From Escherichia coli (GTDB lineage Bacteria; Pseudomonadota; Gammaproteobacteria; Enterobacterales; Enterobacteriaceae), in the NCBI RefSeq assembly GCF_029227855.1, contig NZ_CP074356.1: a DNA stretch of 64,000 bases; one strand, given 5' to 3'. The first letter of the stretch is position 1. Each line of letters starts with the position of its first letter. The translations under genes and the position numbers were made by a program. The notes below the pieces were generated by a model that saw only the letters and a program-made list of their open reading frames with translations, had not been told where the DNA came from and did no database searches. Positions 8,552-64,000 of this stretch are shown here, piece by piece.

Positions 8552-9358
8552 ATGAAAGCATTCTGGCGTAACGCCGCGTTGCTCGCGGTTTCTCTGCTTC
8601 CCTTCTCTTCTGCCAACGCCGTGGCGTTGCAGGCAAAACAGTATGGCGATTTTGATCGCTATGTCCTGGCCCTCTCCTGGCAAACCGGATTTTGCCAGAG
8701 TCAACACGATCGAAATCGTAACGAACGAGATGAATGTCGCCTGCAAACCGAAACGACCAACAAAGCTGATTTTCTGACCGTACATGGTCTATGGCCAGGA
8801 TTGCCTAAATCGGTTGCTGCCCGTGGTGTTGATGAACGCCGCTGGATGCGCTTCGGTTGCGCTACTCGCCCAATCCCGAATCTACCAGAAGCGCGCGCCA
8901 GCCGAATGTGTTCATCGCCGGAAACCGGGTTATCGCTGGAAACGGCCGCTAAACTAAGTGAAGTCATGCCAGGAGCTGGCGGACGTTCCTGCCTGGAACG
9001 CTACGAATATGCCAAACACGGTGCCTGCTTTGGTTTTGATCCAGACGCATACTTCGGCACGATGGTACGCCTGAATCAAGAAGTTAAAGAGAGCGAAGCC
9101 GGAAAATTCCTTGCGGATAACTACGGTAACACAGTGAGCCGCCGTGACTTTGATGCCGCCTTTGCCAAAAGCTGGGGAAAAGAGAACGTGAAAGCAGTTA
9201 AGCTAACGTGCCAGGGTAACCCTGCGTATTTGACTGAAATTCAGATCTCGATCAAAGCTGACGCCATCAACGCTCCGCTTTCTGCCAACTCATTCTTGCC
9301 ACAACCACACCCAGGCAACTGTGGCAAAACCTTTGTGATTGATAAAGCAGGTTATTAA
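8552..9358 (+). CDS. rna: Periplasmic ribonuclease I, 268 aa
   Basis: ORF 8534..9358; start taken at ATG 8552 (MKAFWRNAALLAVSLLPFSSANA... signal peptide). Confidence 0.92.
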   Translation: MKAFWRNAALLAVSLLPFSSANAVALQAKQYGDFDRYVLALSWQTGFCQSQHDRNRNERDECRLQTETTNKADFLTVHGLWPGLPKSVAARGVDERRWMRFGCATRPIPNLPEARASRMCSSPETGLSLETAAKLSEVMPGAGGRSCLERYEYAKHGACFGFDPDAYFGTMVRLNQEVKESEAGKFLADNYGNTVSRRDFDAAFAKSWGKENVKAVKLTCQGNPAYLTEIQISIKADAINAPLSANSFLPQPHPGNCGKTFVIDKAGY

Positions 9359-9536
9359 TCCTCTGATTTACAAAACACGCTAATTCGTCTTCCATAAACC
9401 ATGACGATTAAGATTTATACATAATGCGCTACATTGAGGAATTCCCTGAATGTGACGCAAATCACTTCAAAGAGTGAGCAACAGTCAGTATCATCATGTG
9501 AGTTAAACCCTCGCCGCCTGACGGTGAGGGTTTTCT

Positions 9537-10248
9537 TGTGCACAGAAAACCCCCAGCTAGGCTGGGGGTTCCGGAAAGCTTTCAGCTTTGAGCCTGTTAT
9601 TAAAACCCCTTTTGATTTGTTAAAACACCTTGCGGTCTGGCAACTGCAAGTGTCAAACAAGAAATCAAAAGGGGGTCCCAATGGGGAACGAAAAGAGCTT
9701 AGCGCACACCCGATGGAACTGTAAATATCACATAGTTTTTGCGCCAAAATACCGAAGACAGGTGTTCTACAGAGAGAAGCGTAGAGCAATAGGCAGTATT
9801 TTGAGAAAGCTGTGTGAGTGGAAAAGCGTACGGATTCTGGAAGCTGAATGCTGTGCAGATCATATCCATATGCTTGTGGAGATCCCGCCTAAAATGAGCG
9901 TATCCGGGTTTATGGGATATCTGAAAGGGAAAAGCAGTCTGATGCTTTACGAGCAGTTTGGTGATTTGAAATTCAAATACAGGAACAGGGAGTTCTGGTG
10001 CAGAGGGTACTACGTCGATACAGTGGGTAAGAACACGGCGAAGATACAGGATTACACAAAGCACCAGCTTGAAGAGGATAAAATGGGAGAGCAGTTATCG
10101 ATTCCCTATCCGGGCAGCCCGTTTACGGGCCGTAAGTAACGAAGTTGGATGCAAATGTCAGATCGTGTGCGCCTGTTAGGGCGCGGCTGGTAAGAGAGCC
10201 TTATAGGCGCATTTGAAAAACCTCCGGCTATGCCGGAGGATATTTATT
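9537..10248 (+). mobile_element. IS200 copy 1 (IS200/IS605 family), ~712 bp, boundaries approximate (+/- 5 bp)
   Basis: Boundaries set by where the sequence stops matching the reverse complement of copy 2 (48334..49046). Contains a left-end hairpin CCCCCAGC-TAG-GCTGGGGG, a 152-aa tnpA, and a right-end hairpin CCTCCGGC-TAT-GCCGGAGG. No terminal inverted repeats, as expected for this family. Confidence 0.85.
9681..10139 (+). CDS. tnpA: IS200 transposase TnpA (HUH Y1 transposase), 152 aa
   Basis: ORF 9630..10139; start taken at ATG 9681 (MGNEKSLAHTRWNCKYHIVFAPKYRRQVFY...HIHMLVEIPPK), the IS200 TnpA signature. Confidence 0.9.
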   Translation: MGNEKSLAHTRWNCKYHIVFAPKYRRQVFYREKRRAIGSILRKLCEWKSVRILEAECCADHIHMLVEIPPKMSVSGFMGYLKGKSSLMLYEQFGDLKFKYRNREFWCRGYYVDTVGKNTAKIQDYTKHQLEEDKMGEQLSIPYPGSPFTGRK

Positions 10249-10299
10249 TTTGGGTATGTTTATCTGCGACACTCGCAGTACCGACGACATGGAGTAAAA

Positions 10300-10710
10300 A
10301 TGTCCAGACCAACTATCATCATTAACGACCTGGATGCCGAACGCATCGATATTCTGCTGGAGCAACCCGCCTATGCTGGTTTGCCAATCGCCGACGCGTT
10401 AAACGCAGAGTTGGATCGCGCCCAAATGTGTTCGCCAGAAGAGATGCCACACGACGTGGTGACAATGAACAGCCGGGTTAAATTCCGCAATCTTAGCGAT
10501 GGCGAAGTGCGTGTGCGCACGCTGGTGTATCCGGCAAAAATGACCGACAGCAATACTCAGCTTTCCGTTATGGCTCCGGTAGGTGCCGCACTGCTGGGGC
10601 TGCGCGTTGGCGATTCCATTCACTGGGAACTTCCGGGCGGCGTTGCAACCCACCTTGAAGTGCTGGAACTCGAATACCAGCCAGAAGCTGCTGGCGACTA
10701 CCTGCTTTAA
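10300..10710 (+). CDS. rnk: Regulator of nucleoside diphosphate kinase Rnk (GreA/GreB-like), 136 aa
   Basis: ORF 10213..10710; start taken at ATG 10300 ([28 protein letters not shown]...). Confidence 0.9.
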
Positions 10711-10852
10711 TCCCATCTGCACAAGCGATAACTCGCTTTGCCCAGAGGATGCACTCGCATCCTCTTTTCGCTCAAATATCAACCAGATTTATCATTTTGC
10801 TCTTAAGCGCAGCATTCTAATCTGAACTGGTTATTCATCTGCGGAACCTCAT

Positions 10853-10942
10853 ATGAGCGAAGCTCTCGGTATCACTGCATTTTATATATTCATAGCCGCG
10901 ATTATTGTTGCTGCAGTGCTATACCTTGAACAACGCTGGTAG
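10853..10942 (+). CDS. Candidate small hydrophobic protein, 29 aa (MSEALGITAFYIFIAAIIVAAVLYLEQRW), hypothetical
   Basis: Short ATG-to-TAG ORF read from the raw sequence in the 355-bp rnk-uspG spacer; one predicted transmembrane helix; weak Shine-Dalgarno. Below the ORF-track size cutoff. Confidence 0.2.
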   Translation: MSEALGITAFYIFIAAIIVAAVLYLEQRW

Positions 10943-11065
10943 CGCCTGGTTTTATTTATTTTCCAGCTCAATAGCAAATTCAGATCAAATCAGCCTCGCA
11001 AATCATAGATTCATAACCAATAATGTGCTGTTATGTATACATGCAAAAACAAGGAGAGAATGCTT

Positions 11066-11494
11066 ATGTACAAGACAATCATCATGCCAGTGGATGTTTT
11101 CGAAATGGAATTGAGCGACAAAGCTGTTCGCCACGCTGAATTCCTCGCCCAGGATGACGGAGTTATTCATCTACTTCACGTACTACCCGGGTCAGCCAGC
11201 CTGAGCCTGCACCGTTTTGCCGCTGATGTGCGTCGTTTTGAAGAGCATCTGCAACATGAAGCAGAAGAACGTCTGCAAACGATGGTCAGCCACTTCACCA
11301 TCGATCCTTCCCGCATTAAGCAACATGTCCGTTTTGGTAGCGTGCGGGATGAAGTCAATGAGTTGGCAGAAGAACTGGGGGCTGATGTTGTAGTTATCGG
11401 TTCGCGCAACCCTTCGATTTCGACCCATCTGTTAGGTTCTAACGCCTCGAGCGTGATCCGCCACGCCAATCTGCCGGTGCTGGTTGTGCGTTAA
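11066..11494 (+). CDS. uspG: Universal stress protein G (UspG/YbdQ), 142 aa
   Basis: ORF 11033..11494; start taken at ATG 11066 ([29 protein letters not shown]...). Confidence 0.9.
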
Positions 11495-11510
11495 TTGCCA
11501 GAATAAATAT

Positions 11511-11548
11511 CCCGCCCTGCCCGGAGCCATCCCGGCGGGGCTTTTTAT
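11511..11548 (+). terminator. Terminator hairpin downstream of uspG
   Basis: CCCGCC...GGCGGGG stem followed by CTTTTTATT, directly after the uspG stop. Confidence 0.5.
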
Positions 11549-11552
11549 TGCC

Positions 11553-11586
11553 ATAAAAAAGCCGCCAGGTTTGACCCCGGCGGCTA
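11553..11586 (-). terminator. Terminator hairpin downstream of ahpF (minus strand)
   Basis: GCCGCC(N12)GGCGGC stem with an A-run on the plus strand (a U-run on the minus-strand transcript), 30 nt past the ahpF stop. Confidence 0.5.
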
Positions 11587-11614
11587 AGCAATTGCAGGTG
11601 AATCTTACTTCTTC

Positions 11615-13180
11615 TTATGCTGTTTTGGTGCGAATCAGGTAGTCAAAAGCACTCAGAGAGGCTTTGGCACCTTCGCCAGTGGCGATGATGATCTGCTTGT
11701 ACGGAACCGTTGTACAGTCACCCGCTGCGAACACGCCTTTCACGTTGGTTTCGCATTTCGCATCAATGATAATCTCGCCCATGCGGTTACGTTCGACTGC
11801 GCCTTCGAGCCAGTTGGTGTTCGGCAGCAGACCAATCTGCACGAAAATACCGGCCAGTTCGATGTTGTGAATATCGCCGCTGACACGATCGCGATATTCC
11901 AGACCAACGACTTTGCTGCCGTCGCCTTTCACTTCCGTGGTTTGCGCATTCAGAATAATGTCGACGTTTTTCAGGCTGCGCAGTTTGTCCTGCAGAACCT
12001 GGTCGGCTTTCATTTCTGGCGCAAATTCCAGCAGAGTTACGTGCTCAACGATACCCGCCAGGTCGATTGCTGCTTCCACGCCGGAGTTACCGCCGCCGAT
12101 AACCGCTACGCGTTTACCTTTAAACAGCGGGCCGTCGCAGTGCGGGCAGTAGGTCACGCCTTTGGTGCGATACTGATCTTCGCCCGGAACGTTCATGTTG
12201 CGCCATTTTGCACCGGTCGCCACGATAATGCTGCGCGCTTTCAGTACCGCGCCGGAAGCTGTTTCAATCTGATGCAGGCCACCTTCAACCGCTGCCGGGA
12301 TCAGTTTGCTGGCGCTCTGGCTGTCGATCACATCAACATCGTATTCATCAACGTGAACTTTCAGTGCCCCTGCCAGCTTCTGCCCTTCGGTCTTCGGTAC
12401 AGAAATGTAGTTTTCGATATCAACGGTATCGAGGATCTGACCACCAAAACGTTCGCCCATCAAACCAGTACGGATACCTTTACGTGCGGAGTAAATTGCT
12501 GCCGCTGCACCCGCCGGGCCGGAACCGACGATTAATACGTCATAAGCATCACGCTTGTTCAGCTCTTCTGCCGCACGTTTTTCCGCGCCAGTATCAATTT
12601 TGGCGACGATTTCAGTCAACGTCATGCGACCCTGACCAAACTCTTTCCCGTTTACGAACACTGCCGGAACGCCCATCACGTTGCGATCGGTGATTTCGTT
12701 CTGGAAGGTGCCGCCGTCAATTGCAGTGTGCTTGATGCGCGGGTTCAGTACGCTCATCAGGTTCAGCGCCTGCACCACGTCCGGGCAGTTGTGGCAAGAG
12801 AGCGAGTAATAGGTTTCGAATTCAAAATCACCGTCAATATGGCGAATCTGCTCCAGCAGAGACTGCGCTTCTTTCGACGGATGACCACCGGTCCACAACA
12901 ACGCCAGTACCAGCGAGGTAAACTCGTGGCCCAGCGGGGAACCTGCAAAACGTGGCCCCTGGTTAGAACCTGGGTTAGTGATCAGGAAAGACGGCTTACG
13001 CACCGGCAAGCTGTTATCTTCTTTAAAGGTGACTTTGTCTGACAGTTCTGCGATTTCAGCCAACAGTTCCTTGATTTCTGCCGATTTAGCGCTGTCATCC
13101 AGCGTGGCAATTAACTCAACAGGCTTGGTCAATTTCTCAAGGTAAGCCTTGAGTTGAGTTTTCATATTTGTGTCGAGCAT
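11615..13180 (-). CDS. ahpF: Alkyl hydroperoxide reductase subunit F, 521 aa
   Basis: ORF 11615..13210; start taken at the ATG at 13180 ([30 protein letters not shown]...) with AGGAG upstream; flavoprotein disulfide reductase motifs. Confidence 0.93.
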
Positions 13181-13350
13181 GTTTATCTCCTGGGCTTTAA
13201 ACATCATCATGCAAGCGGCCTCTGCGGCTACCTGGATGCAGCTTGCATCATGGTGCGGGGAAGAAAATCGGGTGCCGCAGCACCCGAAGAATTAGGTGAA
13301 TTTCCGAAGTATTTCGCGCCGGAGTTGGTAGCGCGAAAGACGAAGGAAAT

Positions 13351-13914
13351 TTAGATTTTACCAACCAGGTCCAGAGACGGAGCCAGAGTTGCTTCACCTT
13401 CTTTCCATTTAGCCGGGCAAACTTCACCTGGGTGAGAAGCTACGTACTGTGCTGCTTTGATTTTACGCAGCAGGTCAGACGCGTCACGGCCAATGCCTTC
13501 AGCGGTAACTTCGATTGCCTGGATGATACCCTGCGGGTCAACAACGAAGGTCGCACGGTCAGCCAGACCTTCATCTTCACGCATGTTGTCGAAGTTACGG
13601 GTCAGGGCGCCAGTCGGGTCGCCGATCATCGCATATTTGATTTTAGCGATGGTTTCAGAGCTGCTGTGCCATGCTTTGTGGGTGAAGTGAGTATCGGTAG
13701 ATACTGCGTATACGTCTACGCCCAGTTTCTGCAGTTCTTCGTAGTGGTCAGCAACGTCACCCAGTTCGGTCGGGCATACGAAAGTAAAGTCAGCCGGGTA
13801 GAAGAAGAAGACGCTCCAGCGGCCTTCGGTATCTTTTTCGGTGATTTCGATGAATTCGCCGTTTTTGAATGCCTGGTTTTTAAAAGGTTTAATTTTGGTG
13901 TTAATCAAGGACAT
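13351..13914 (-). CDS. ahpC: Alkyl hydroperoxide reductase subunit C (peroxiredoxin), 187 aa
   Basis: ORF track 13351..13914, [51 protein letters not shown]... Confidence 0.95.
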
Positions 13915-53500: not shown

Positions 53501-53731
53501 AGGCACCGACAACATAGTGGTGGTTAGCGGATAAGTCACCTGATTTTCAACGATTTGCGGTGCCTGACCGGGATAGCTGGTTTTAATAATCACCTGCACA
53601 TCAGAGAGATCCGGCAGTGCATCCACTGGCGTGTTAATGATGGTCCAGGTGCCCCAGATACTCAGAAACAACGCGCCCATCAGCACCAGAAAACGGTTCG
53701 CCACCGAGCGACGAATAATCCATTCAATCAT
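50588..53731 (-). CDS. cusA: Cu(I)/Ag(I) efflux RND transporter CusA, 1047 aa
   Basis: ORF track 50588..53731, [47 protein letters not shown]... Confidence 0.96.
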
Positions 53732-53742
53732 TGGTTATTCCC

Positions 53743-54966
53743 TCAATGCGCATGGGTAGCACTTTCAGAGCGCATCCGCTCCAGTGCGCCAGAAATATTG
53801 GCTTCGGAATCAATCAGGAACAGGCCGCTGGAAACCACCTTTTCACCTTCCGCCAGACCAGAGCGTAATGCGGTGACGCCTTGCGATGCCTGGAAAACGG
53901 CAACGCGTTTCGGTACAAAGCGCCCGTCGGCATCAACGGTAATCACCCGCTGTTCGCTGCCGGTATCAATCAGCGCTTGTGACGGAATGAGCAGCATCGG
54001 TTCGCTGGCGGTGTTGAGTTGCAACCAGGCGTTCATTCCCGGCTTTAGCGCCTCGTCGGTGTTGTCGACTTCCAGGCGCAGCTGCAGCGTGCGGGTTGCG
54101 GCATCCACGCCGGGTAGCAGCGTCCATTTGCGGATGGTGAGTGTTTTATCAGGTCGTGCCGGAACGGTGAGCGTAAACTGCGAGGCATCTTTCACCAGCC
54201 AGGCGATGGACTCCGGGATCGCGGCAGTGATCCACACCGGATCCATACCCTGAATTTTCGCGACCACGTTATCTTTGGCGATATTCATTCCCGCGCGCAG
54301 ATCAAACGCGGTGATCACGCCATCAATGGGCGCTTTGAGCGTAAAGCGAGTCTGGATTTTTTGCGTGGCGATCAGGCGGCGAATATCCGCCTCCGGCATT
54401 CCCGCCAGTCTCAGCCGCTCAAGAATGCCTTCAGTCTGGGTCGCCGTACCGCCAGTTTCGCGCAGCAGTAAATACTCACTCTGCGCTTCCACCCAGTCGG
54501 GAATGGTCAGGTCGAGAAGCGGCGCGCCCTTTTGTACTTTATCGCCCACGGTAAGCGGATACACCTTGTCGATAAACCCGGCGGCGCGGGCCTGCACAAT
54601 GGCATACTGATACTCGTTGTAACTGACATTCGCCGGGAAACTTTGGGCAAAAGTCAGCGGCCCGCGCGTGACGGTCGCCGTTTTCACCCCCAGATTCTGC
54701 GTCTGAGTCGGGTCAATGCGCACACCAGACGCAGAACTCTCTTCATCGGCATATTTCGGCACCAGATCCATATCCATAAACGGCGATTTACCTGGTTTAT
54801 CGAACCGCGTATTGGGATACATCGGGTCGTACCAGAATAAGATTTTACGTTCTGCGGTCGACGTTTTTTCTGCGGGCGGTTCCGCCTTTGCAAACCAGGT
54901 AAAACCTGCCGCAGAAATAATACCGCCCGCGATCATGCTGCCGATAATAAGCGCGATTTTTTTCAT
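53743..54966 (-). CDS. cusB: Cu(I)/Ag(I) efflux membrane-fusion protein CusB, 407 aa
   Basis: ORF track 53743..54966, MKKIALIIGSMIAGGIISAAGFTWFAKAEPPAEK... Confidence 0.95.
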   Translation of the reverse strand: MKKIALIIGSMIAGGIISAAGFTWFAKAEPPAEKTSTAERKILFWYDPMYPNTRFDKPGKSPFMDMDLVPKYADEESSASGVRIDPTQTQNLGVKTATVTRGPLTFAQSFPANVSYNEYQYAIVQARAAGFIDKVYPLTVGDKVQKGAPLLDLTIPDWVEAQSEYLLLRETGGTATQTEGILERLRLAGMPEADIRRLIATQKIQTRFTLKAPIDGVITAFDLRAGMNIAKDNVVAKIQGMDPVWITAAIPESIAWLVKDASQFTLTVPARPDKTLTIRKWTLLPGVDAATRTLQLRLEVDNTDEALKPGMNAWLQLNTASEPMLLIPSQALIDTGSEQRVITVDADGRFVPKRVAVFQASQGVTALRSGLAEGEKVVSSGLFLIDSEANISGALERMRSESATHAH

Positions 54967-54981
54967 CTCATTAAACCTGGG

Positions 54982-55314
54982 TTACTGGCTGACTTTAATA
55001 TCCTGTAATAAAGAAAGGTTGCCCTGCTGGACAAAATTAAACGCCACTTTGTCGCCGGTTTTTATTTCGCCCATCTTCGTCTGCGGGGTGATGGTAAAGC
55101 GCATGGTCATCTCCGGCCAGTTCACGGCAGCAATCGGATCGTGATGGATAGTGATTTTTTTGCTTTCCAGATCAATACCTTTTACCACCCCTGTGGCACT
55201 AATGACCTGCGGTTGTGCTTCGCTCATGGTTTCATGATGATGTTCGTTAGCCTGGGCATTAAAGCCAATAACGGTAAACAGACTGAACATTGCGACTTGC
55301 AGTGCTTTTTTCAT
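54982..55314 (-). CDS. cusF: Periplasmic Cu(I)/Ag(I) chaperone CusF, 110 aa
   Basis: ORF track 54982..55314, MKKALQVAMFSLFTVIGFNAQANEHHHETMSEAQPQVISATGVVKGIDLESKKITIHHD... Confidence 0.95.
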   Translation of the reverse strand: MKKALQVAMFSLFTVIGFNAQANEHHHETMSEAQPQVISATGVVKGIDLESKKITIHHDPIAAVNWPEMTMRFTITPQTKMGEIKTGDKVAFNFVQQGNLSLLQDIKVSQ

Positions 55315-55337
55315 TTATTCTCTCCTGGAGTTAAAAA

Positions 55338-56720
55338 TTATTGCTGCCAACCGCCACCAAGTGCGGTATATAAAGAAATTTCGTTAACCTGACGGGCATA
55401 ATTCAGGTCAAGTAAAGTTTGTCGGGTTGCAAATAAAGAACGTTCGGCATCCAGCACTTCCAGATAACTGATTGCGCCGTGCTGATATAATGCCCGCGCC
55501 CGTTGCAAAGTAATTTGCAGCGATGCCAGATAACGCTGCTGGGCGCTAATTTGATCGTTCAGGCTTTGACGTAATGCCAGCGCATCTGCCACTTCTTTAA
55601 AGGCATTCTGGATTTTCTGTTCATAATTCACCACCGACTGCTGCTGGCGAATTTCGGCGATATCCAGATTGGCCTGGTTGCGTCCGGCATTAAAAATGGG
55701 GATCTCAATTTTGGGAATAAAATTCCACATCCCGCTGCTGGCGTTAAATAAGGACGACAGATCGCTGCTGGCGGTCGATATTCCGCTGGTCAGACTGATA
55801 GACGGGAAAAATGCCGCGCGTGCAGCGCCAATATTGGCATTAGCCGCCATCAACGCGTGTTCAGCTTCCATAATATCCGGGCGCTGCAATAAGATTTGCG
55901 ACGACAAGCCCGCCGGTAATTTAACGCTTTGCAGGCTGTCGCTGTTTACTGTTTGCGCTTGCGGCAGCTTGCCGTAGCTTCCCAGCAACAGTTGCAATGC
56001 ATTATTCGCCTGCGCCAGTTCCCCCTGACGTTTAGCGATGTCGCTGCGGGTACTTTCTATCACCCCGCGAGCCTGTTCCAGCGCCAGAACATTGCTGCTA
56101 CCGGTCAACAGTTGTTTTTCGACAAACGCATATGACTGCTGATAATTACGCAGCGTTTCTTCGGCTATTTGCAATTGCGCATACGCCAGTTGCTGATTGA
56201 AATAGCTTTGCGCGACATTAGAAACCAGCAGAATATGCACCGCGCGCTGGGCTTCCTCAGTGGCTAAATAATTTTGGCGCTCGGCTTCGCTCATGTTCTT
56301 TAAGCGACCGAAAAAATCGAGATCAAAGCTGGCGTTAAGGCCGGTCGAAAACTCCCGTGTCGTGGCGGTATTCCCTTTAAGATTACCGCTCCAGCTGCCG
56401 CTGCCCTCGCCATTGAGCTGTGGGTAGCGGTCGGCATCGGTCAGACGATATTGCGCCCGTGCCTCCTGCACTTTCAGCGTCGCCATGCGCAAATCCCGGT
56501 TATTCACCAGCGCCTCGCTAATCAGCGTCTTCACCTGATTATCAATAAAAAAGGTGCGCCAGCCCGCGTTCTGGTAGTTATCTGCTGCGTTAACCAGGCC
56601 GTTCTGGCTGAGTGAGAACTGCTTCGGTACGGGCATTGCCGGACGCTGATAATCCGGTGCCAATGAACAACCGGTTAGCGCAAGGGCCACACAAAATGGC
56701 AGAAGTTTACAAGGAGACAT
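55338..56720 (-). CDS. cusC: Cu(I)/Ag(I) efflux outer-membrane factor CusC (lipoprotein), ~460 aa
   Basis: ORF 55338..56726 (upstream GTG); start taken at ATG 56720 (MSPCKLLPFCVALALTGCSLAPDYQRP..., lipobox LTGC). Confidence 0.93.
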   Translation of the reverse strand: MSPCKLLPFCVALALTGCSLAPDYQRPAMPVPKQFSLSQNGLVNAADNYQNAGWRTFFIDNQVKTLISEALVNNRDLRMATLKVQEARAQYRLTDADRYPQLNGEGSGSWSGNLKGNTATTREFSTGLNASFDLDFFGRLKNMSEAERQNYLATEEAQRAVHILLVSNVAQSYFNQQLAYAQLQIAEETLRNYQQSYAFVEKQLLTGSSNVLALEQARGVIESTRSDIAKRQGELAQANNALQLLLGSYGKLPQAQTVNSDSLQSVKLPAGLSSQILLQRPDIMEAEHALMAANANIGAARAAFFPSISLTSGISTASSDLSSLFNASSGMWNFIPKIEIPIFNAGRNQANLDIAEIRQQQSVVNYEQKIQNAFKEVADALALRQSLNDQISAQQRYLASLQITLQRARALYQHGAISYLEVLDAERSLFATRQTLLDLNYARQVNEISLYTALGGGWQQ

Positions 56721-56789
56721 AGGCACATAATTTCTGGTGATTTTATGCCGCCAACTTTACCCGCCAGGCTCTGATTTTCCGGTGACAGG

Positions 56790-56811
56790 AAAATGACAAA
56801 ATTGTCATTTT
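56790..56811. promoter_or_regulatory. CusR box in the divergent cusC / cusR promoter region
   Basis: Palindrome AAAATGACAAAATTGTCATTTT between divergent cusCFBA and cusRS, matching the CusR operator as I recall it. Confidence 0.75.
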
Positions 56812-56876
56812 ACCAATAAGCGATTGCCATCTGATCCCGCTACTCTAGAATTGCCCGGGCAACATGTGGAGGAAAT

Positions 56877-57560
56877 ATGAAACTGTTGATTGTCGAAGAT
56901 GAAAAGAAAACCGGAGAATACTTGACCAAAGGGTTAACCGAAGCCGGTTTTGTGGTCGATTTGGCCGACAACGGGCTGAATGGCTACCATCTGGCGATGA
57001 CCGGAGATTATGATCTGATAATCCTCGATATTATGCTGCCGGACGTGAACGGCTGGGATATCGTGCGCATGTTGCGTTCCGCCAATAAAGGGATGCCGAT
57101 TCTGTTGCTTACCGCGCTTGGTACCATTGAACATCGCGTCAAGGGGCTGGAGTTGGGGGCGGATGACTATCTGGTGAAGCCGTTCGCTTTTGCTGAACTG
57201 CTGGCGCGGGTGCGCACTCTACTGCGGCGCGGGGCGGCGGTAATTATCGAAAGTCAGTTTCAGGTTGCCGATCTGATGGTCGATCTCGTCAGCCGCAAAG
57301 TCACCCGCAGCGGCACGCGCATCACTCTGACCAGTAAAGAATTTACTCTGCTGGAGTTTTTCCTCCGCCATCAAGGCGAAGTGCTGCCCCGCTCGCTTAT
57401 CGCCTCGCAGGTGTGGGACATGAATTTCGACAGCGATACCAACGCCATTGATGTGGCAGTGAAGCGGCTGCGCGGCAAAATCGACAACGACTTTGAGCCG
57501 AAGCTGATTCAAACCGTGCGCGGCGTGGGTTACATGCTTGAGGTGCCGGATGGTCAGTAA
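56877..57560 (+). CDS. cusR: Copper-responsive response regulator CusR (OmpR family), 227 aa
   Basis: ORF track 56877..57560, [41 protein letters not shown]... Confidence 0.95.
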
Positions 57561-58998
57561 GCCATTTCAGCGCCCGTTTTCGCTGGCAACCCGCCTGACC
57601 TTTTTTATCAGCCTGGCCACCATCGCGGCGTTTTTCGCCTTTGCCTGGATCATGATTCACTCGGTAAAAGTGCATTTTGCTGAGCAGGATATTAATGATT
57701 TAAAAGAGATTAGCGCCACACTCAAGCGCGTTCTTAATCATCCCGAAGAGACACAAGCCCGACGCTTAATGACGCTGGAAGATATCGTCAGTGGTTATTC
57801 CAATGTGTTGATTTCCCTGGCAGATAGCCAGGGTAAAACGGTGTATCACTCCCCCGGTGCGCCGGATATCCGCGAGTTTACGCGTGACGCCATACCCGAT
57901 AAAGACACGCGGGGCGGCGAGGTGTATCTCCTTTCCGGCCCGACGATTATGATGCCGGGCCACGGTCACGGGCATATGGAACACAGCAACTGGCGGATGA
58001 TTAACTTGCCGGTTGGCCCGTTGGTGGACGGCAAACCGATTTATACGCTCTACATCGCGCTTTCGATCGATTTTCATCTTCATTACATAAATGATTTGAT
58101 GAATAAACTTATTATGACCGCATCGATCATCAGCATCCTGATCGTCTTTATCGTGCTGTTGGCGGTACATAAAGGTCACGCACCGATCCGCAGCGTCAGC
58201 CGTCAAATCCAGAACATTACCTCGAAAGATCTCGACGTTCGCCTTGACCCGCAGACCGTGCCGATTGAGCTGGAACAGCTGGTACTGTCGTTCAACCATA
58301 TGATCGAGCGTATTGAGGATGTCTTTACTCGCCAGTCCAATTTCTCAGCGGATATCGCTCACGAAATTCGTACACCAATTACGAATCTCATCACGCAAAC
58401 GGAAATCGCCCTCAGCCAGTCGCGCAGCCAGAAGGAGCTGGAAGATGTGCTCTACTCTAATCTCGAAGAGCTGACGCGAATGGCGAAAATGGTCAGCGAT
58501 ATGCTGTTTCTCGCCCAGGCCGATAACAACCAGTTAATCCCCGAAAAGAAAATGCTCAACCTGGCGGATGAAGTCGGCAAAGTGTTCGATTTTTTCGAGG
58601 CATTAGCGGAAGATCGCGGCGTGGAGTTGCGGTTTGTTGGTGACGAGTGTCAGGTTGCGGGCGATCCGCTGATGCTGCGTCGGGCGTTAAGCAACCTGCT
58701 TTCGAACGCCCTGCGTTATACGCCGCCCGGAGAGGCAATTGTTGTGCGCTGCCAGACGGTCGATCACCAGGTGCAAGTTACCGTCGAAAACCCCGGTACG
58801 CCCATTGCGCCCGAGCACTTACCGCGATTGTTTGACCGTTTCTATCGCGTTGACCCTTCCCGCCAGCGAAAAGGTGAAGGTAGCGGTATTGGGCTGGCGA
58901 TAGTGAAATCGATTGTTGTCGCGCATAAAGGCACGGTTGCGGTAACGTCAGATGCGCGGGGGACAAGGTTTGTGATTATGCTGCCGGAGAGAGAGTGA
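57550..58998 (+). CDS. cusS: Copper/silver sensor histidine kinase CusS, 482 aa
   Basis: ORF 57538..58998; start taken at ATG 57550 ([29 protein letters not shown]...), overlapping the cusR stop; H-box [10 protein letters not shown]. Confidence 0.93.
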
Positions 58999-59734
58999 TT
59001 ATTAAGTTCAAATTCAGGGCGTGGTGCATCACCTCCTGGTATTGTTGATCAACAAATTAGAGAAAAACTTATTAAACATATGAAATATCGAAGGCTTTTA
59101 TTTTTCAAAGTTTCACGAGATGTTTGTATATGAAACTTAGTTAAATCTGTGTTTCTTCCAATTGTAGATCACAATGCCCTTTCTAAATTTTCATCGTTAT
59201 AAACAAGCCATCTATCATATAAAGCAATGAATAATTTAATCGCGATTAATCATCATTAATTGTTATATTATTCACTCAATCTATTTATCAAGTGAATTTG
59301 ATAAATTCCTAATTTAAAATATCCACTATTGAGCCAGTATTTAACAACGTTAAGATGTGCAATGTGCAGATCATGTTATCAGGGTGGAGCGGTAGCATAT
59401 ATTTCTTATGCAATCATTCATTTTAATAATGTTAATTGGATTATTTATTGCTGTGAATAAAAATATATTATGAATATTGGTTTAACTTTGCGTTTTTGTT
59501 ACTCGTTGTGATATGCGTACCTGTCCTGAATAACGCCAAGAAACAAGAGGTTGAGCTTGTGATTATTTTTTTGACTGAACAGACACCCGTTTCTGTAAAG
59601 TAATATTTAAACAAAATTCTCACATAACCATAGCATTTTCTGTTCCTTCCCTAATAACGTCTGAAGTCGTCCCGCTTATCACATTATCCGCAGTTGTACG
59701 GTACGGATCATTATTCATTTTACTGGAGGTTGCT

Positions 59735-61636
59735 ATGTCAACCGGATTACGTTTCACACTGGAAGTGGACGGCCTGCCGCCGGATGCTTTTGCGGTGGTT
59801 TCCTTTCATCTGAACCAGTCACTCTCTTCGCTCTTTTCCCTCGATCTCTCCCTGGTCAGCCAGCAGTTTCTCTCCCTTGAATTTGCGCAGGTGCTGGACA
59901 AAATGGCCTACCTGACGATATGGCAGGGCGATGAAGTACAGCGCCGGGTGAAAGGCGTGGTGACCTGGTTTGAACTCGGGGAGAACGACAAAAACCAGAT
60001 GCTGTACAGCATGAAGGTGCACCCGCCGCTGTGGCGTGCCGGTCTGCGCCAGAACTTCCGTATCTTCCAGAACGAGGACATCAAAAGCATCCTCGGCACG
60101 ATGTTGCAGGAAAACGGGGTGACCGAATGGAGTCCGCTGTTCAGCGAGCCGCATCCTTCCCGTGAGTTTTGTGTCCAGTACGGTGAGACTGATTACGATT
60201 TCCTGTGCCGGATGGCGGCGGAGGAAGGCATCTTCTTTTATGAGGAGCATGCTTACAAAAGTACCGACCAGAGCCTGGTGCTGTGCGACACAGTCCGCCA
60301 TCTGCCCGAATCTTTTGAAATCCCATGGAACCCGAACACCCGTACCGAGGTGAGCACCCTCTGCATCAGCCAGTTCCGCTACAGCGCACAAATCCGCCCT
60401 TCTTCCGTGGTGACCAAAGACTACACCTTTAAACGCCCCGGCTGGGCCGGACGTTTTGAACAGGAAGGCCAGCACCAGGACTACCAGCGCACGCAGTATG
60501 AAGTGTATGACTACCCCGGACGTTTCAAGGGTGCCCACGGGCAGAACTTTGCCCGCTGGCAGATGGACGGCTGGCGAAACAATGCAGAAACCGCGCGGGG
60601 AATGAGTCGCTCGCCGGAGATATGGCCGGGACGACGAATTGTGCTGACGGGGCATCCGCAGGCGAACCTGAACCGGGAATGGCAGGTGGTGGCAAGTGAA
60701 CTGCACGGCGAACAGCCACAGGCGGTGCCAGGACGGCAGGGAGCGGGGACGGCGCTGGAGAACCATTTTGCGGTGATCCCGGCAGACAGAACATGGCGAC
60801 CACAGCCGTTGCTGAAACCGCTGGTCGACGGCCCGCAGAGCGCTGTCGTGACAGGACCGGCAGGCGAGGAAATCTTCTGCGACGAACATGGTCGCGTGCG
60901 GGTGAAGTTCAACTGGGACCGCTATAACCCGTCAAACCAGGACAGTTCGTGCTGGATCCGTGTGGCACAGGCGTGGGCAGGCACCGGTTTTGGCCACCTG
61001 GCGATACCGCGTGTGGGTCAGGAGGTGATTGTAGACTTCCTCAACGGCGATCCGGACCAGCCGATCATTATGGGGCGCACCTACCACCAGGAAAACCGCA
61101 CCCCCGGCAGCCTGCCGGGAACAAAGACGCAGATGACCATCCGCTCCAAAACGTACATGGGCAGCGGATTTAATGAGCTGAAGTTTGATGATGCGACAGG
61201 GAGAGAACAGGTCTACATCCACGCGCAGAAGAACATGGATACCGAAGTGCTCAACGACCGTACCACCACCGTAAAACACGATCACCACGAAACCGTAAAA
61301 AATGACCAGACGGTCACGATCCAGGAAGGTAACCGCCTTCTTACGGTGGAAAAAGGCCACAAGATCACCGGAGTACTGAAAGGGTCTTTATCTGAGGATG
61401 TCTTTCAGGACAGAGGCACGATTGCCGGTTCGGTGCATGTTGACGCTGTAAACAATGGTGGCGAAGGCGACGGTATACAGGCTTATACGGCGATTAAGGA
61501 AATTTTGCTGGCCGTGGAGGAAAGCAAAATTGCGCTGACGCCGGATGGCATTCAGCTACAGGTCGGGGAATCGACGGTAATCAGGCTGTCGAAGGATGGC
61601 ATCACCATCGTGGGCGGTTCTGTTTTCATCAACTGA
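59735..61636 (+). CDS. vgrG: Type VI secretion spike protein VgrG (gp27/gp5-like), 633 aa, no C-terminal effector extension
   Basis: ORF track 59735..61636 with GGAGG Shine-Dalgarno; MSTGLRFTLEVDGLPPDAFAVVSFHLNQSLSSLFSLDLSLVS... N-terminus is the VgrG signature; followed by a DUF1795 gene and a PAAR-Rhs gene. Confidence 0.85.
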   Translation: MSTGLRFTLEVDGLPPDAFAVVSFHLNQSLSSLFSLDLSLVSQQFLSLEFAQVLDKMAYLTIWQGDEVQRRVKGVVTWFELGENDKNQMLYSMKVHPPLWRAGLRQNFRIFQNEDIKSILGTMLQENGVTEWSPLFSEPHPSREFCVQYGETDYDFLCRMAAEEGIFFYEEHAYKSTDQSLVLCDTVRHLPESFEIPWNPNTRTEVSTLCISQFRYSAQIRPSSVVTKDYTFKRPGWAGRFEQEGQHQDYQRTQYEVYDYPGRFKGAHGQNFARWQMDGWRNNAETARGMSRSPEIWPGRRIVLTGHPQANLNREWQVVASELHGEQPQAVPGRQGAGTALENHFAVIPADRTWRPQPLLKPLVDGPQSAVVTGPAGEEIFCDEHGRVRVKFNWDRYNPSNQDSSCWIRVAQAWAGTGFGHLAIPRVGQEVIVDFLNGDPDQPIIMGRTYHQENRTPGSLPGTKTQMTIRSKTYMGSGFNELKFDDATGREQVYIHAQKNMDTEVLNDRTTTVKHDHHETVKNDQTVTIQEGNRLLTVEKGHKITGVLKGSLSEDVFQDRGTIAGSVHVDAVNNGGEGDGIQAYTAIKEILLAVEESKIALTPDGIQLQVGESTVIRLSKDGITIVGGSVFIN

Positions 61637-61663
61637 TTCACTCAGATTATCAGGGAGTATTTT

Positions 61664-62125
61664 ATGCAGTTCACTTTTAATGAAGGCCACATTCAACTGC
61701 CGTCTCAATGGCAGGATCAGTCAATGCAGGTCCTGGTGTCCACAGATAACAGTGGCATCAACCTGGTCATTACCCGCGAAGCCGTTCCACAGGGAACCCT
61801 GACACCAGAGCTGTACCAGGAAACGCTGGCGCTGTACCAGGGCAAACTTGATGGGTACACCGAACATGCCTGCCGGGAAATCACTCTGGCAGAGGCCCCG
61901 GCCTGGCTGCTGGATTATTCCTGGAACGGTCCGGAAGATGAGGGGAATCAGGGGCGGATTAGCCAGATAGCCGTATTCCAGCGGCGTGGAGATACGCTGC
62001 TGACCTTCACTTTCAGCACCTCCTTATCCCTGAAGAACAGTCAAAAGACGATGCTGCTGGAGGTGATAAAGAGCTTCACCCCGTTGCCACCGGAGAATGA
62101 CATCCAAAAGGACCAGCCGCGCTGA
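61664..62125 (+). CDS. DUF1795 / Eag-family (EagR-like) chaperone for a prePAAR Rhs effector, 153 aa
   Basis: ORF track 61664..62125, MQFTFNEGHIQLPSQWQDQSMQVLVSTDNSGINLVITREAV...; size, N-terminal pattern and position between vgrG and a prePAAR-Rhs gene fit Eag chaperones. Confidence 0.7.
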   Translation: MQFTFNEGHIQLPSQWQDQSMQVLVSTDNSGINLVITREAVPQGTLTPELYQETLALYQGKLDGYTEHACREITLAEAPAWLLDYSWNGPEDEGNQGRISQIAVFQRRGDTLLTFTFSTSLSLKNSQKTMLLEVIKSFTPLPPENDIQKDQPR

Positions 62126-62144: not shown

Positions 62145-64000
62145 ATGAGTGAAGGACCAGGCGGGCCACAGGGAGCGACCGCAGGCGGTACGCTGGCAAT
62201 GCGAATGCTGTCACAGCAGGCGATGGTCGCCAGCCAGATGAAACGGGCAGCCAACGACAAAGCCATTGCACAGATGCTGGCATCAAAAAAGTCCGGCCCC
62301 CCCGCCGCCAGGCTGGGCGATGAAATTCAGCACAAGAGTTTTTTGGGGGCGCTGGCAGGGGCCGTGCTGGGGGCGATAGTGACCATCGCAGAAGGTTGCC
62401 TGATTATGGCCGCCTGTGCCACCGGCCCTTATGCGCTGGTTCTGGTGCCTGCGCTGATGTATGCCAGCTATAAGGCGAGTGATTATGTGGAGGAGAAACA
62501 GAACCAGCTTGAATCATGGATAAACAGCTTTTGTGACACGGACGGCGCCATCAATACCGGTTCTGAAAATGTAAACATTAACGGAAAGCCCGCTGCCAGG
62601 GCCGCCGTCACCCTTCCCCCTCCTCCCCCACCTGGAGCAATACCTGAAATCCCACAGGGGGAACCCTCATGGGGTGATATTGCCACTGACCTGCTTGAAT
62701 CGGCAGCGGAAAAAGCAGTACCACTGGCGAAGGCCTGGGGGAACGCTGTTATCACCCTGACGGACAGCAATGCCGGTTTTATGGATCGCGTCAGCGCCGG
62801 CGCATCGCTTCTGTTTCCCGCCGGTCCGGTATTAATGGAGTTTGCCACCATGGTGGGCGGGCGTGGCGAAATCAAAAAAGATGTGGATTTCCCGGAAGCC
62901 GGTGAGGACACGGCGCTCTGCGACAAGGAGAACAAACCACCGAGGATAGCCCAGGGCAGCAGCAACGTCTTTATCAACAATCAGCCCGCCGCGCGCAAGG
63001 GCGACAAACTGGAGTGCAGCGCGGCAATCGTGGAAGGTTCGCCGGACGTCTTTATTGGCGGTGAACAGGTGACCTATCTGGATATCCAGCCAGAGTTCCC
63101 GCCGTGGCAGAGAATGATCCTGGGGGGAATAACGATAGCCAGCTATCTTCTGCCGCCAGCGGGACTGCTGGGAAAACTGAAGAATCTGGCGAGACTCGGC
63201 AAACTGGGGAACCTGCTGGGGAAAAGCGGGAAGCTGCTGGGGGCAAAGCTCGGCGCGTTGCTGGGAAAAACAGATAAGTCGTTAAAAAGTATTGCCAATA
63301 AAGTCATCAGATGGGTAACAGATCCTGTCGATCCGGTAACCGGCGCGTACTGCGACGAACGTACCGACTTTACGCTGGGCCAGACCCTCCCCCTCTCCTT
63401 CACCCGTTTCCACAGTTCTGTACTGCCGCTGCATGGCCTGACCGGCGTGGGCTGGAGCGACTCCTGGAGCGAATACGCCTGGGTGCGTGAACAGGGAAAC
63501 CGGGTGGATATCATCAGCCAGGGAGCCACGCTGAACTTCGCCTTCGACGGTGACAGTGATACGGCGGTTAACCCGTATCACGCCCAGTACATTCTGCGCC
63601 GCCGCGATGATTATCTGGAGCTGTTCGACAGGGATGCACTGAGCAGCCGCTTCTTTTATGACGCCTTTCCGGGAATGCGTCTGCGCCACCCGGTGACTGA
63701 CGATACCAGCGATGACCGCCTGGCACACAGCCCCAATGACCGGATGTACATGCTGGGCGGGATGAGCGACACCGCCAGCAACCGCATCACGTTTGAGCGC
63801 GACAGCCAGTACCGGATCACAGGTGTCAGTCACACCGACGGGATCCGGCTTAAACTGACGTACCACGCCAGCGGCTACCTGAAAGCCATTCACCGCACGG
63901 ATAACGGCATACAGACGCTGGCGACCTACGAACAGGATGCGCGGGGGCGGCTGACAGAAGCGGATGCGCGGCTGGACTACCACCTGTTTTATGAGTACGA
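62145..64000 (+). CDS. Rhs-family T6SS effector, N-terminal part (prePAAR motif, two TM helices, PAAR domain, start of RHS repeat core); partial, continues beyond window end
   Basis: Own translation from ATG 62145 (GAGGG Shine-Dalgarno): MSEGPGGPQG...AARLGDEIQH (prePAAR AARxxDxxxH) ...FLGALAGAVLGAIVTIAEGCLIMAACATGPYALVLVPALMYASY... PAAR-like INGKPAARA / NVFINNQPAARKGDKLECS ... RWVTDPVDPVTGAY (RHS core start); no stop before position 64000. Confidence 0.85.
   Translation, partial: MSEGPGGPQGATAGGTLAMRMLSQQAMVASQMKRAANDKAIAQMLASKKSGPPAARLGDEIQHKSFLGALAGAVLGAIVTIAEGCLIMAACATGPYALVLVPALMYASYKASDYVEEKQNQLESWINSFCDTDGAINTGSENVNINGKPAARAAVTLPPPPPPGAIPEIPQGEPSWGDIATDLLESAAEKAVPLAKAWGNAVITLTDSNAGFMDRVSAGASLLFPAGPVLMEFATMVGGRGEIKKDVDFPEAGEDTALCDKENKPPRIAQGSSNVFINNQPAARKGDKLECSAAIVEGSPDVFIGGEQVTYLDIQPEFPPWQRMILGGITIASYLLPPAGLLGKLKNLARLGKLGNLLGKSGKLLGAKLGALLGKTDKSLKSIANKVIRWVTDPVDPVTGAYCDERTDFTLGQTLPLSFTRFHSSVLPLHGLTGVGWSDSWSEYAWVREQGNRVDIISQGATLNFAFDGDSDTAVNPYHAQYILRRRDDYLELFDRDALSSRFFYDAFPGMRLRHPVTDDTSDDRLAHSPNDRMYMLGGMSDTASNRITFERDSQYRITGVSHTDGIRLKLTYHASGYLKAIHRTDNGIQTLATYEQDARGRLTEADARLDYHLFYEY

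Follow-up and report, generated by a model that had tools for sequence, protein, structure and literature searches.

The genes vgrG, an Eag-family chaperone gene and rhs lie in this order on the plus strand at the end of a 64,000-nucleotide stretch of Escherichia coli DNA (contig NZ_CP074356.1), hereafter called the window. The chaperone gene is directly upstream of rhs, and vgrG stands before the chaperone gene.

59735..61636, plus strand: vgrG, spike protein of the T6SS (type VI secretion system), 633 aa, carrier of the Rhs PAAR tip (NCBIfam TIGR03361 VI_Rhs_Vgr, E 4.4e-188)
61664..62125, plus strand: Eag-family chaperone, DcrB/DUF1795 fold, 153 aa (Pfam DcrB PF08786, E 1.7e-27)
62145..64000, plus strand: gene of the Rhs effector, codons 1-618 of 1609, truncated by the window end (translation)

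The subject of this analysis is a Gly/Lys/Leu-rich (G/K/L) segment of the Rhs protein, LLGKLKNLARLGKLGNLLGKSGKLLGAKLGALLGK (residues 341-375, nt 63165-63269), located after the PAAR domain and before the Rhs cage. An earlier note, made from the DNA letters and their open reading frames (ORFs), had described it as an unusual amphipathic repeat that could not be assigned to a described domain. The results below give good support for placing it in the postPAAR module of a class I prePAAR Rhs effector, as the module's cationic tail. It is a lineage-specific sequence variant of a known region, and no undescribed domain.

The post-PAAR region and its G/K/L tail

The rhs frame at 62145-64000 (plus strand) was open over all 618 codons and continued past the window end. 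Its DNA was 100% identical to that of E. coli JNEC-KY178, in which the full gene is 4830 nt long and encodes 1609 aa (locus 9001-13830) under the annotation 'RHS repeat-associated core domain-containing protein'. From the end of the PAAR domain to the start of the cage, the following features were recognized.

63093..63158, plus strand: postPAAR conserved helix and Pro-Pro break, residues 317-338, EFPPWQRMILGGITIASYLLPP (alignment to EFSAWERAILIAVEFLVPP of Tre23; AlphaFold2)
63159..63275, plus strand: cationic G/K/L low-complexity tail, residues 339-377 (entropy, charge, confidence of the predicted structure)
63276..63317, plus strand: amphipathic helix K378-V391, at the position equivalent to the anchor helix of RhsA (helical hydrophobic moment 0.60-0.62)
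63321..63326, plus strand: D393-P394, predicted N-terminal autoproteolysis site (D-P-[VI]-D-x-x-T-G motif conserved across Rhs homologues)
63321..63509, plus strand: Rhs N-terminal plug ('cork') domain, residues 393-455 (Pfam DUF6531 PF20148 from residue 393, E 1.2e-12)

The low complexity reported before the RHS core was real and was the most pronounced in the window. When every open frame of 150 codons or more in the 64 kb was scanned in 35-residue windows and these were ranked by entropy, all eight lowest of the 23,780 fell on the G/K/L segment (2.30-2.57 bits), indicating that the segment was no chance fluctuation; its borders at nt 63165-63269 differed slightly from the earlier estimate of roughly 63160-63265. 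The tail (residues 339-377) carried a net charge of +7 with a single acidic residue (D/E), and the 35-residue segment contained seven lysines and one arginine. Leucine accounted for 20% of the post-PAAR region. Residues 339-393 together had a net charge of +10, as against -41 for the Rhs core. The best 19-mer in the tail gave a Hessa-type sum of 11 kcal/mol, showing that the tail was not transmembrane-competent; these sums are simple insertion sums on the scale of Hessa et al. (2005). No Pfam or NCBIfam model covered the gap between the PAAR domain (end at about 310) and DUF6531 (start at 393), and the segment lay inside this gap, at no standard domain boundary.

The structure predicted by AlphaFold2 placed a helix at residues 320-335, upstream of the tail. 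The mean pLDDT (predicted local distance difference test) values of the blocks over 311-330 were 92 and 81, and the helix ended in LLPP. The junction leading into it, xYLDIxxE-F-P-P-W, was kept across the family, with E317 conserved in at least 90% of the aligned sequences. Apart from transmembrane region 1 near the N-terminus, this marginally hydrophobic helix after PAAR (324-342) was a further hydrophobic element, with a Kyte-Doolittle (KD) mean of 1.62 and a Hessa-type sum of 4.3 kcal/mol. A conserved alpha-helix after the PAAR domain and before the D-P site, the definition of a postPAAR domain, was accordingly present. In the tail 339-377 of the N-terminal model, only short helices (338-350 and 361-372) were predicted, at block-mean pLDDT of 45-53. 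Such values beside those of 81-97 for the PAAR domain and postPAAR helix fit a tail that would fold conditionally.

Comparison with solved structures gave the region a described counterpart. Residues 254-618 were aligned by HMMER to Photorhabdus laumondii Rhs1/Tre23 (7PQ5), the best solved homologue, with E 3.5e-66 for the whole match. The alignment ran unbroken through the second PAAR half, the post-PAAR region and the cage, the post-PAAR region being set against Tre23 residues 193-256. When the 88-residue post-PAAR stretch alone was compared with the PDB, only Tre23 came near significance (E 0.013); matches to proteasome beta-4 and BPIFA1 (E of at least 0.29) were rejected as chance. The view that the segment was unusual and lacked a counterpart among described domains did not hold, as it aligned with the postPAAR of Tre23 and the seal and anchor region of RhsA has also been described. 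In P. laumondii, the isolated postPAAR was pulled down by EagR and cross-linked to it as detected by mass spectrometry, which identified a second EagR-binding site (Jurenas et al. 2021, PMC8636562). The conclusion of the same work was that the first transmembrane domain (TMD1) and the postPAAR are embedded by two EagR molecules, and that the N-terminal fragment ends at the D-P motif, whose Asp is needed for self-cleavage.

Downstream of the tail, D393-P394-VDPVTG opened the plug, and the plug-start sequence RWVTDPVDPVTGAY came after the G/K/L segment. Foldseek matched the plug to 7PQ5, 8QJB and 8QJD (E 2e-4 to 5e-4), and block-mean pLDDT was 83-92 over 390-469. The Rhs protein contained the YD repeat TIGR01643 and C-terminal DPLGL motifs at 1444 and 1466; an AlphaFold2 model of residues 300-1472 gave the cage a pLDDT of 83.8 and a predicted template modelling score of 0.83. 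In P. laumondii Rhs1 the equivalent Asp change, D288N, abolishes cleavage (PMC8636562), and Pseudomonas protegens RhsA is cleaved at P305 (PMC8765631). The downstream end of the E. coli region matched these experimentally defined sites, and self-cleavage is predicted here from the sequence. In RhsA, a seal peptide (268-275) and an amphipathic anchor helix (289-302) lie just upstream of the plug (Gunther et al. 2022, PMC8765631). HMMER set the E. coli helix 378-391 opposite RhsA 289-302 at low posterior probability, and AlphaFold2 predicted a helix at 377-391, with a block-mean pLDDT of 53-65 when the N-terminus was modelled and under 50 when the cage was. Within the early Rhs core, Tandem Repeats Finder reported a 31-nt unit at 63763-63820 (1.9 copies, 78% matches, score 72).

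The term 'repeat' used earlier for the G/K/L segment was too strong, because the segment was only compositionally biased with a weak 9-nt periodicity; the low complexity and the bias themselves were borne out. Tandem Repeats Finder reported nothing at the segment. The DNA repeats detected there were degenerate 21-nt and 11-nt families of 66-91% identity (66-76% for the 21-nt copies) at spacings of 9, 18 and 21 nt, and repeated 4-mers were no commoner than in composition-preserving shuffles (1944/20000). A true tandem peptide repeat was rejected on these grounds, and the GKL pattern is compositional. Four glycines stood in register (G362-x3-G366-x3-G370-x3-G374), an arrangement found in 562 of 20000 shuffles (2.8%). 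When compared with transmembrane glycine zippers (Kim et al. 2005; Ali et al. 2023), the in-register GxxxGxxxG was present, and hydrophobic embedding and conservation among relatives were absent; the Pfam glycine-zipper matches over 354-374 were noise (E 8.5). The description as amphipathic applied to the whole E. coli tail, whose mean helical hydrophobic moment exceeded that of shuffles (p 0.022), but not to the 35-mer alone.

A cationic post-PAAR subclass among homologues

A phmmer search with residues 1-451 against 1.84 billion representative proteins returned 1042 hits, many of them aligned over 255-445. We aligned 109 homologues, of which 105 had enough sequence to be scored. The layout of helix, Pro-Pro break and cationic tail was found in 26 of them (16 Rhs proteins and 10 without a plug motif), and the scored sequences were divided into three post-PAAR types.

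Helix/Pro-Pro/basic tail: n=26, median net charge +12 (+5 to +18), median KD maximum 1.20-1.29, three or more Gly in register in 5
Other Rhs: n=39, median net charge +2, median KD maximum 1.65, three or more Gly in register in 25
Short class II-like: n=40, median net charge -2, median KD maximum 2.08, three or more Gly in register in 27

Members of the cationic type included proteins of Erwinia tracheiphila, Xenorhabdus, Pectobacterium parmentieri and Muribacter muris and one from a metagenome-assembled genome of Nannocystaceae. Tre23, as aligned to the E. coli protein, had this layout too. The mean helical hydrophobic moment was above 95% of the protein's own composition-preserving shuffles in 22 of the 26 cationic tails, with a median p of 0.008. 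The family consensus after PAAR contained GxxxG in about five repeats. The four-glycine zipper of E. coli was not common to the other members of the subclass, and a conserved glycine zipper was rejected, as three or more in-register glycines were kept in only 5 of the 26.

An alignment had been proposed earlier as a way to learn whether the linker was conserved or specific to this lineage, and the result was divided. The exact GKL pattern was confined to Escherichia, with post-PAAR leucine at 20% as against 5-14% in other members, whereas the layout of helix, Pro-Pro break and cationic tail extended to the 26 homologues. The nearest relative outside Escherichia, from Erwinia (50% identity), had an Arg/Ala/Leu/Gly version of the tail with zero positional identity.

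The same helix, Pro-Pro break and cationic tail occurred, with one N-terminal transmembrane region, in small non-Rhs prePAAR effectors of 354-422 aa (P0038, P0041, P0042, P0062, P0063, P0087 and P0103). In these proteins, several of which were complete at about 360-420 aa, the tail led directly into varied toxin domains, and two of them carried a deaminase-like C-A-E...P-C-x-x-C signature. As the module is the same in these small effectors and stands right before the toxin, its role is independent of the cage. These proteins do not fit neatly into the published description of class I and class II.

Within E. coli, the 1856-nt rhs query was matched in 2468 of 5426 complete genomes and the 141-nt post-PAAR stretch in 1848 of 5426. 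The alleles kept the G/K/L character with conservative substitutions (K346G, R350K and D377G). The allele of strain TW10828 had one additional GKL unit (GLLGKLGKLGNLAKLG...), suggesting that slippage by a 9-nt unit probably happens. In a mosaic allele the last helix before the D-P site was swapped, with SRTKNALKNTYNVLKKFIKD in place of GKTDKSLKSIANKVIRWVTD; both polymorphisms lie in the equivalent of 63165-63320. The swap suggests that a breakpoint of recombination lies where the G/K/L tail ends. The G/K/L match in strain MS 115-1 (NZ_CP146665.1, 3472086-3472226) fell in a feature named 'nrfB: cyclic di-GMP-activated glycosyltransferase NrfB' and not in one named Rhs; this label probably reflects a peculiarity of annotation, or a fusion, at the island's edge.

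A second homologue search, with residues 255-451, returned mostly E. coli fragments and frameshift products and had little taxonomic reach; it revealed variants of the G6 tract at 63122-63127 (codons L326-G327-G328). In several E. coli database proteins (P0165-P0169, P0022, P0175, P0179 and P0183) the frame changed at or near this tract, mostly after 'MILGG'. The frameshift splits the gene into an ORF for the prePAAR, transmembrane domain and PAAR and a separate Rhs ORF, and slippage, pseudogenisation and sequencing error are all candidate causes.

The remaining N-terminus and the locus

Upstream of the post-PAAR region the protein was divided as follows.

62190..62285, plus strand: N-terminal extension helix, residues 16-47, before prePAAR (AlphaFold2 helix; residues 21-40 at block-mean pLDDT 88)
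62304..62333, plus strand: prePAAR motif AARLGDEIQH, residues 54-63 (fits AARxxDxxxH; Pfam prePAAR_I PF25799 over 54-100, E 6.7e-5)
62334..62474, plus strand: transmembrane region 1, residues 64-110, two hydrophobic helices with GxxxG motifs (hydropathy, Hessa-type sums, AlphaFold2)
62529..62612, plus strand: PAAR domain, first part, residues 129-156 (Pfam PAAR_motif 132-153, E 0.01; AlphaFold2 strands, pLDDT 94-97 over 131-150)
62613..62939, plus strand: acidic insert of about 109 aa within PAAR, residues 157-265, beginning TLPPPPPPG (gap between the two Pfam PAAR matches)
62940..63080, plus strand: PAAR domain, second part, residues 266-312 (Pfam PAAR_motif 266-310, E 4.4e-10; NF033420, E 2e-12)

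This domain order agreed with what had been read from the letters. All strings quoted in the earlier note were reproduced by the translation, the prePAAR motif at 54-63 was recognized by Pfam prePAAR_I, and the approximately 45 hydrophobic residues held to form two transmembrane helices were recovered by hydropathy, Hessa-type sums and AlphaFold2. The PAAR-like motifs and the start of the RHS core were likewise matched by Pfam PAAR_motif and by DUF6531 at 393. H63 of the prePAAR was at least 90% conserved in the alignment of 109 homologues. Over residues 63-108, the KD mean of 19 residues rose to 2.13; the two best 19-mers of transmembrane region 1 had Hessa-type sums of 1.35 and 3.3 kcal/mol, and its AlphaFold2 helices spanned 66-91 and 94-110. 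An extension of approximately 50 residues (residues 1-53, 62145-62303) stood ahead of the prePAAR. In the Salmonella Rhs1 construct of the SciW structures, the prePAAR region corresponds to residues 9-13.

The PAAR fold was matched by Foldseek to E. coli c1882 PAAR (4JIW) with a target-normalised TM-score of 0.62. As the Pfam matches came in two pieces (132-153 and 266-310), the PAAR domain carries an insert of about 109 residues. The insert had a net charge of -9 and predicted helices at block-mean pLDDT of 36-71, and was also present in the Erwinia tracheiphila orthologue P0015. At the same point in two metagenomic Rhs proteins (P0028 and P0033) stood an analogous insert, also starting with PPPP. 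Foldseek of the N-terminal model against the PDB recovered the plug and PAAR and found no match for the insert or the tail.

With a prePAAR, a transmembrane region before PAAR, a PAAR followed by an Rhs/YD-repeat cage, and Eag and vgrG genes nearby, the protein is best assigned to the class I prePAAR Rhs effectors (Ahmad et al. 2020). These are described with a single transmembrane region, N-terminal to PAAR; here a marginally hydrophobic helix also follows PAAR. The vgrG product is named 'type VI secretion system Vgr family protein' in RefSeq. The Eag protein was matched by phmmer to EagT6/PA0094 (6XRF, 1TU1; E 1e-5) and by Pfam DcrB, and no NCBIfam model matched it. The three genes form a small island directly after cusRS, adjoining cusS (region 53555-62125). 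In the 50 kb checked upstream, housekeeping operons (cit, ent/fep) were all that was present and T6SS core genes were absent; the cus operon was positioned between this stretch and the island. In the reference strain, orphan PAAR/Rhs fragments, a DUF4304 gene and an ISAs1 transposase lay downstream of the island. The same Rhs N-terminus bore strain-dependent C-terminal toxins: a zincin-like metallopeptidase, an AHH nuclease and a restriction-endonuclease-fold toxin.

Role of the tail and comparison with known systems

From what was observed, namely the anatomy, a region homologous to the postPAAR of P. laumondii, a positive charge that is conserved and an amphipathic periodicity, we favor an explanation in which the cationic postPAAR tail would act as a conditionally helical, membrane-attracted tether into the cage plug. 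We put its probability at about 55%. The module would begin with the E-F-P-P-W cap and the moderately hydrophobic helix 317-336, closed by the Pro-Pro break. Approximately 40 G/K/L residues (339-377, net +7), which would be unstructured alone and able to form amphipathic helices, would come next, followed by the strongly amphipathic helix 378-391 and the D393-P394 autocleavage motif at the plug mouth. In the producing cell, PAAR would sit on the VgrG tip, with transmembrane region 1 shielded by Eag dimers and the postPAAR helix likewise, by homology to P. laumondii; homologues are known to bind Eag through postPAAR and to cleave themselves at D-P, which may be expected here by analogy. Between the tip and the acidic Rhs cage (core net -41), the tail would form a flexible connection running into the plug, and after autocleavage at D393-P394 the N-terminal fragment would be held to the cage only by its C-terminal end. 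After firing, the hydrophobic helices would enter the target inner membrane and the cationic amphipathic tail would be drawn to the anionic lipid surface, since the Lys-rich tail would be able to form amphipathic helices although unstructured in solution. Tension on the tail would then dislodge the plug seal, and the toxin would leave the cage. Removal of the seal by tension has been proposed for RhsA by Gunther et al. (PMC8765631). Contact of the tail with the membrane and opening of the cage by pulling on the tail are the inferred steps of this scheme. The 'flexible or membrane-associating linker' suggested at the outset is still the most reasonable reading, with the membrane contact as its conjectural part.

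Several observations weigh against this tether. The 35-residue G/K/L core by itself was not more amphipathic than shuffles (885/5000 at 100 degrees), and much of the amphipathic signal in E. coli stemmed from helix 378-391. In the AlphaFold2 model of 300-1472, no residue ahead of 389 was placed confidently (pLDDT below 50; 23-36 in the tail blocks). According to a preprint, P. protegens RhsA is the one protein in which an anchor helix has been seen, and 7PQ5, the closest homologue, has a loop there (bioRxiv 10.1101/2024.02.26.582050). The tail length varied from 35 to 95 residues among homologues, and the poor positional conservation and low pLDDT are such that a passive spacer would look alike.

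A passive flexible spacer would need only length and solubility, placing PAAR on the VgrG tip with the bulky cage beside the spike, and its composition would come from drift and slippage. The low confidence of the predicted tail (block-mean pLDDT of 45-53 when modelled with the N-terminus and of 23-36 when modelled with the cage) and the range of tail lengths agree with such a spacer, as does the near absence of positional conservation outside Escherichia. The GKL-unit indel among E. coli alleles and the weak 9/21-nt periodicity of the DNA point the same way, and the 141-nt stretch was somewhat more divergent than the 1856-nt query (90-95% identity in 572/1848 and 207/2468 genomes, respectively). 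We nevertheless consider it somewhat unlikely that the tail is only a spacer, since its positive charge was high in all 26 members (+5 to +18), acidic residues were nearly absent (one D/E in 339-377), the amphipathic periodicity was non-random in 22 of 26 tails, and leucine made up 20% of the E. coli post-PAAR region. A high leucine content is atypical of disordered spacers. The tail could have a different role, as a dedicated translocation device. After entry of the hydrophobic helices into the target inner membrane, the Lys-rich tail would be drawn into the bilayer or through it by the membrane potential (inside negative) and the anionic lipids, and the pull would extract the seal and start the threading of the unfolded toxin. 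We regard this role as quite unlikely. If it were true, two post-PAAR solutions, a cationic amphipathic tail or a hydrophobic glycine-zipper second transmembrane domain (TMD2), would cut across class I and class II, and the cationic version would be a portable module of Rhs and small non-Rhs effectors.

It is distinctly improbable that the region forms a second true transmembrane region like the TMD2 of Tse6/Tas1, with helix 320-335 and the glycine-zipper helices arranged as a membrane-spanning hairpin or pore as proposed for Tde1. The position is that of TMD2, and phmmer aligned query residues 265-374 to Tas1 (6OX6) 100-208. The hydrophobicity of the postPAAR helix (4.3 kcal/mol) was also close to that of the second helix of transmembrane region 1 (3.3), and the repeated GxxxG of the family consensus and the register of G362/G366/G370/G374, rare among shuffles, are features that a zipper would have. 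The GxxxG of Tde1 is needed for permeabilisation and translocation (PMC10240207). The best 19-mer of the tail, however, had a sum as high as 11 kcal/mol, the 35-residue segment contained seven lysines and one arginine, the Pfam zipper matches were noise, and in-register glycines were much rarer in the cationic members (5/26) than in the hydrophobic subclasses (25/39 and 27/40). Very improbable is a docking function, in which the tail lysines would bind the Rhs container at its negative surface or lumen and a stretch of the tail would run through the plug as seal peptide, keeping the cleaved N-terminal fragment attached. The charges are suitable for docking (-41 for the Rhs core and +10 for residues 339-393), and solved Rhs containers have been reported as negatively charged inside and outside (bioRxiv 10.1101/2024.02.26.582050). 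HMMER also set the RhsA seal peptide K268-L275 (KGKFLSNL) opposite approximately 344-351 of E. coli and the anchor helix opposite 377-391. Posterior probabilities were low there, and since nothing before residue 389 was placed confidently in the cage-context model, the seal and anchor assignment comes solely from this alignment. Moreover, 10 of the 26 tail-bearing proteins had no Rhs plug motif afterwards, several of them being complete small effectors with the toxin directly downstream.

The locus does not represent a novel type of system. Its Rhs protein is very common, being carried by between roughly a third and almost half of complete E. coli genomes; the region from PAAR to the cage falls into a recognisable subclass that extends to small non-Rhs effectors, and the description of class I effectors as having one transmembrane region omits a conserved second element. 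Residues 339-377 offer a simple mutational handle on the function of the tail in a tractable organism.

Among known systems, P. laumondii Rhs1 (Plu0353, Tre23) shares with the E. coli protein the order of prePAAR, TMD1, PAAR, postPAAR and shell, the D-P motif before the plug and an Eag gene upstream. Its post-PAAR helix EFSAWERAILIAVEFLVPP, aligned with EFPPWQRMILGGITIASYLLPP of E. coli, is likewise followed by a G/K-rich basic tail. The E. coli protein differs in its N-terminal extension of approximately 50 residues, its PAAR insert of approximately 109 residues and its C-terminal toxin, and its tail is Leu-rich with a four-glycine zipper, whereas that of Tre23 has more Lys, Ala and Gly. The measurements of EagR binding, cross-links and cleavage come from the Photorhabdus protein, and the E. 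coli counterpart would follow by homology. P. protegens RhsA (7Q97) is also a class I prePAAR Rhs effector, and E. coli D377-V391 was aligned opposite its anchor helix; the overall similarity, however, was weak (E 1.8e-9), and the RhsA post-PAAR is of the hydrophobic type and not cationic. The likeness to Salmonella Typhimurium Rhs1 with SciW (6XRR), on which Pfam prePAAR_I was built, is through that model (prePAAR and first transmembrane region) and the chaperone family, and is a likeness on the prePAAR side, as the structural work covers residues 1-59 only.

Agrobacterium tumefaciens Tde1 resembles the E. coli protein in having consecutive GxxxG in a chaperone- or adaptor-bound N-terminal region of a T6SS effector, and its GxxxG motif is required for membrane permeabilisation and translocation across the target inner membrane (Ali et al. 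2023, PMC10240207). Unlike the E. coli Rhs, Tde1 is without PAAR or prePAAR and uses the Tap1 adaptor, and the zipper is not conserved in the cationic Rhs subclass. The class II effectors Tse6/Tas1 (6OX6; Ahmad et al. 2020, PMC7773334) share a second chaperone-bound region directly after PAAR and the conserved post-PAAR junction xYLxIxxE-x-P-x-W. Their region, in contrast, is a true hydrophobic Gly-rich TMD2 (median KD maximum 2.08, net charge about -2), carried by proteins of approximately 400-450 aa with no Rhs cage.

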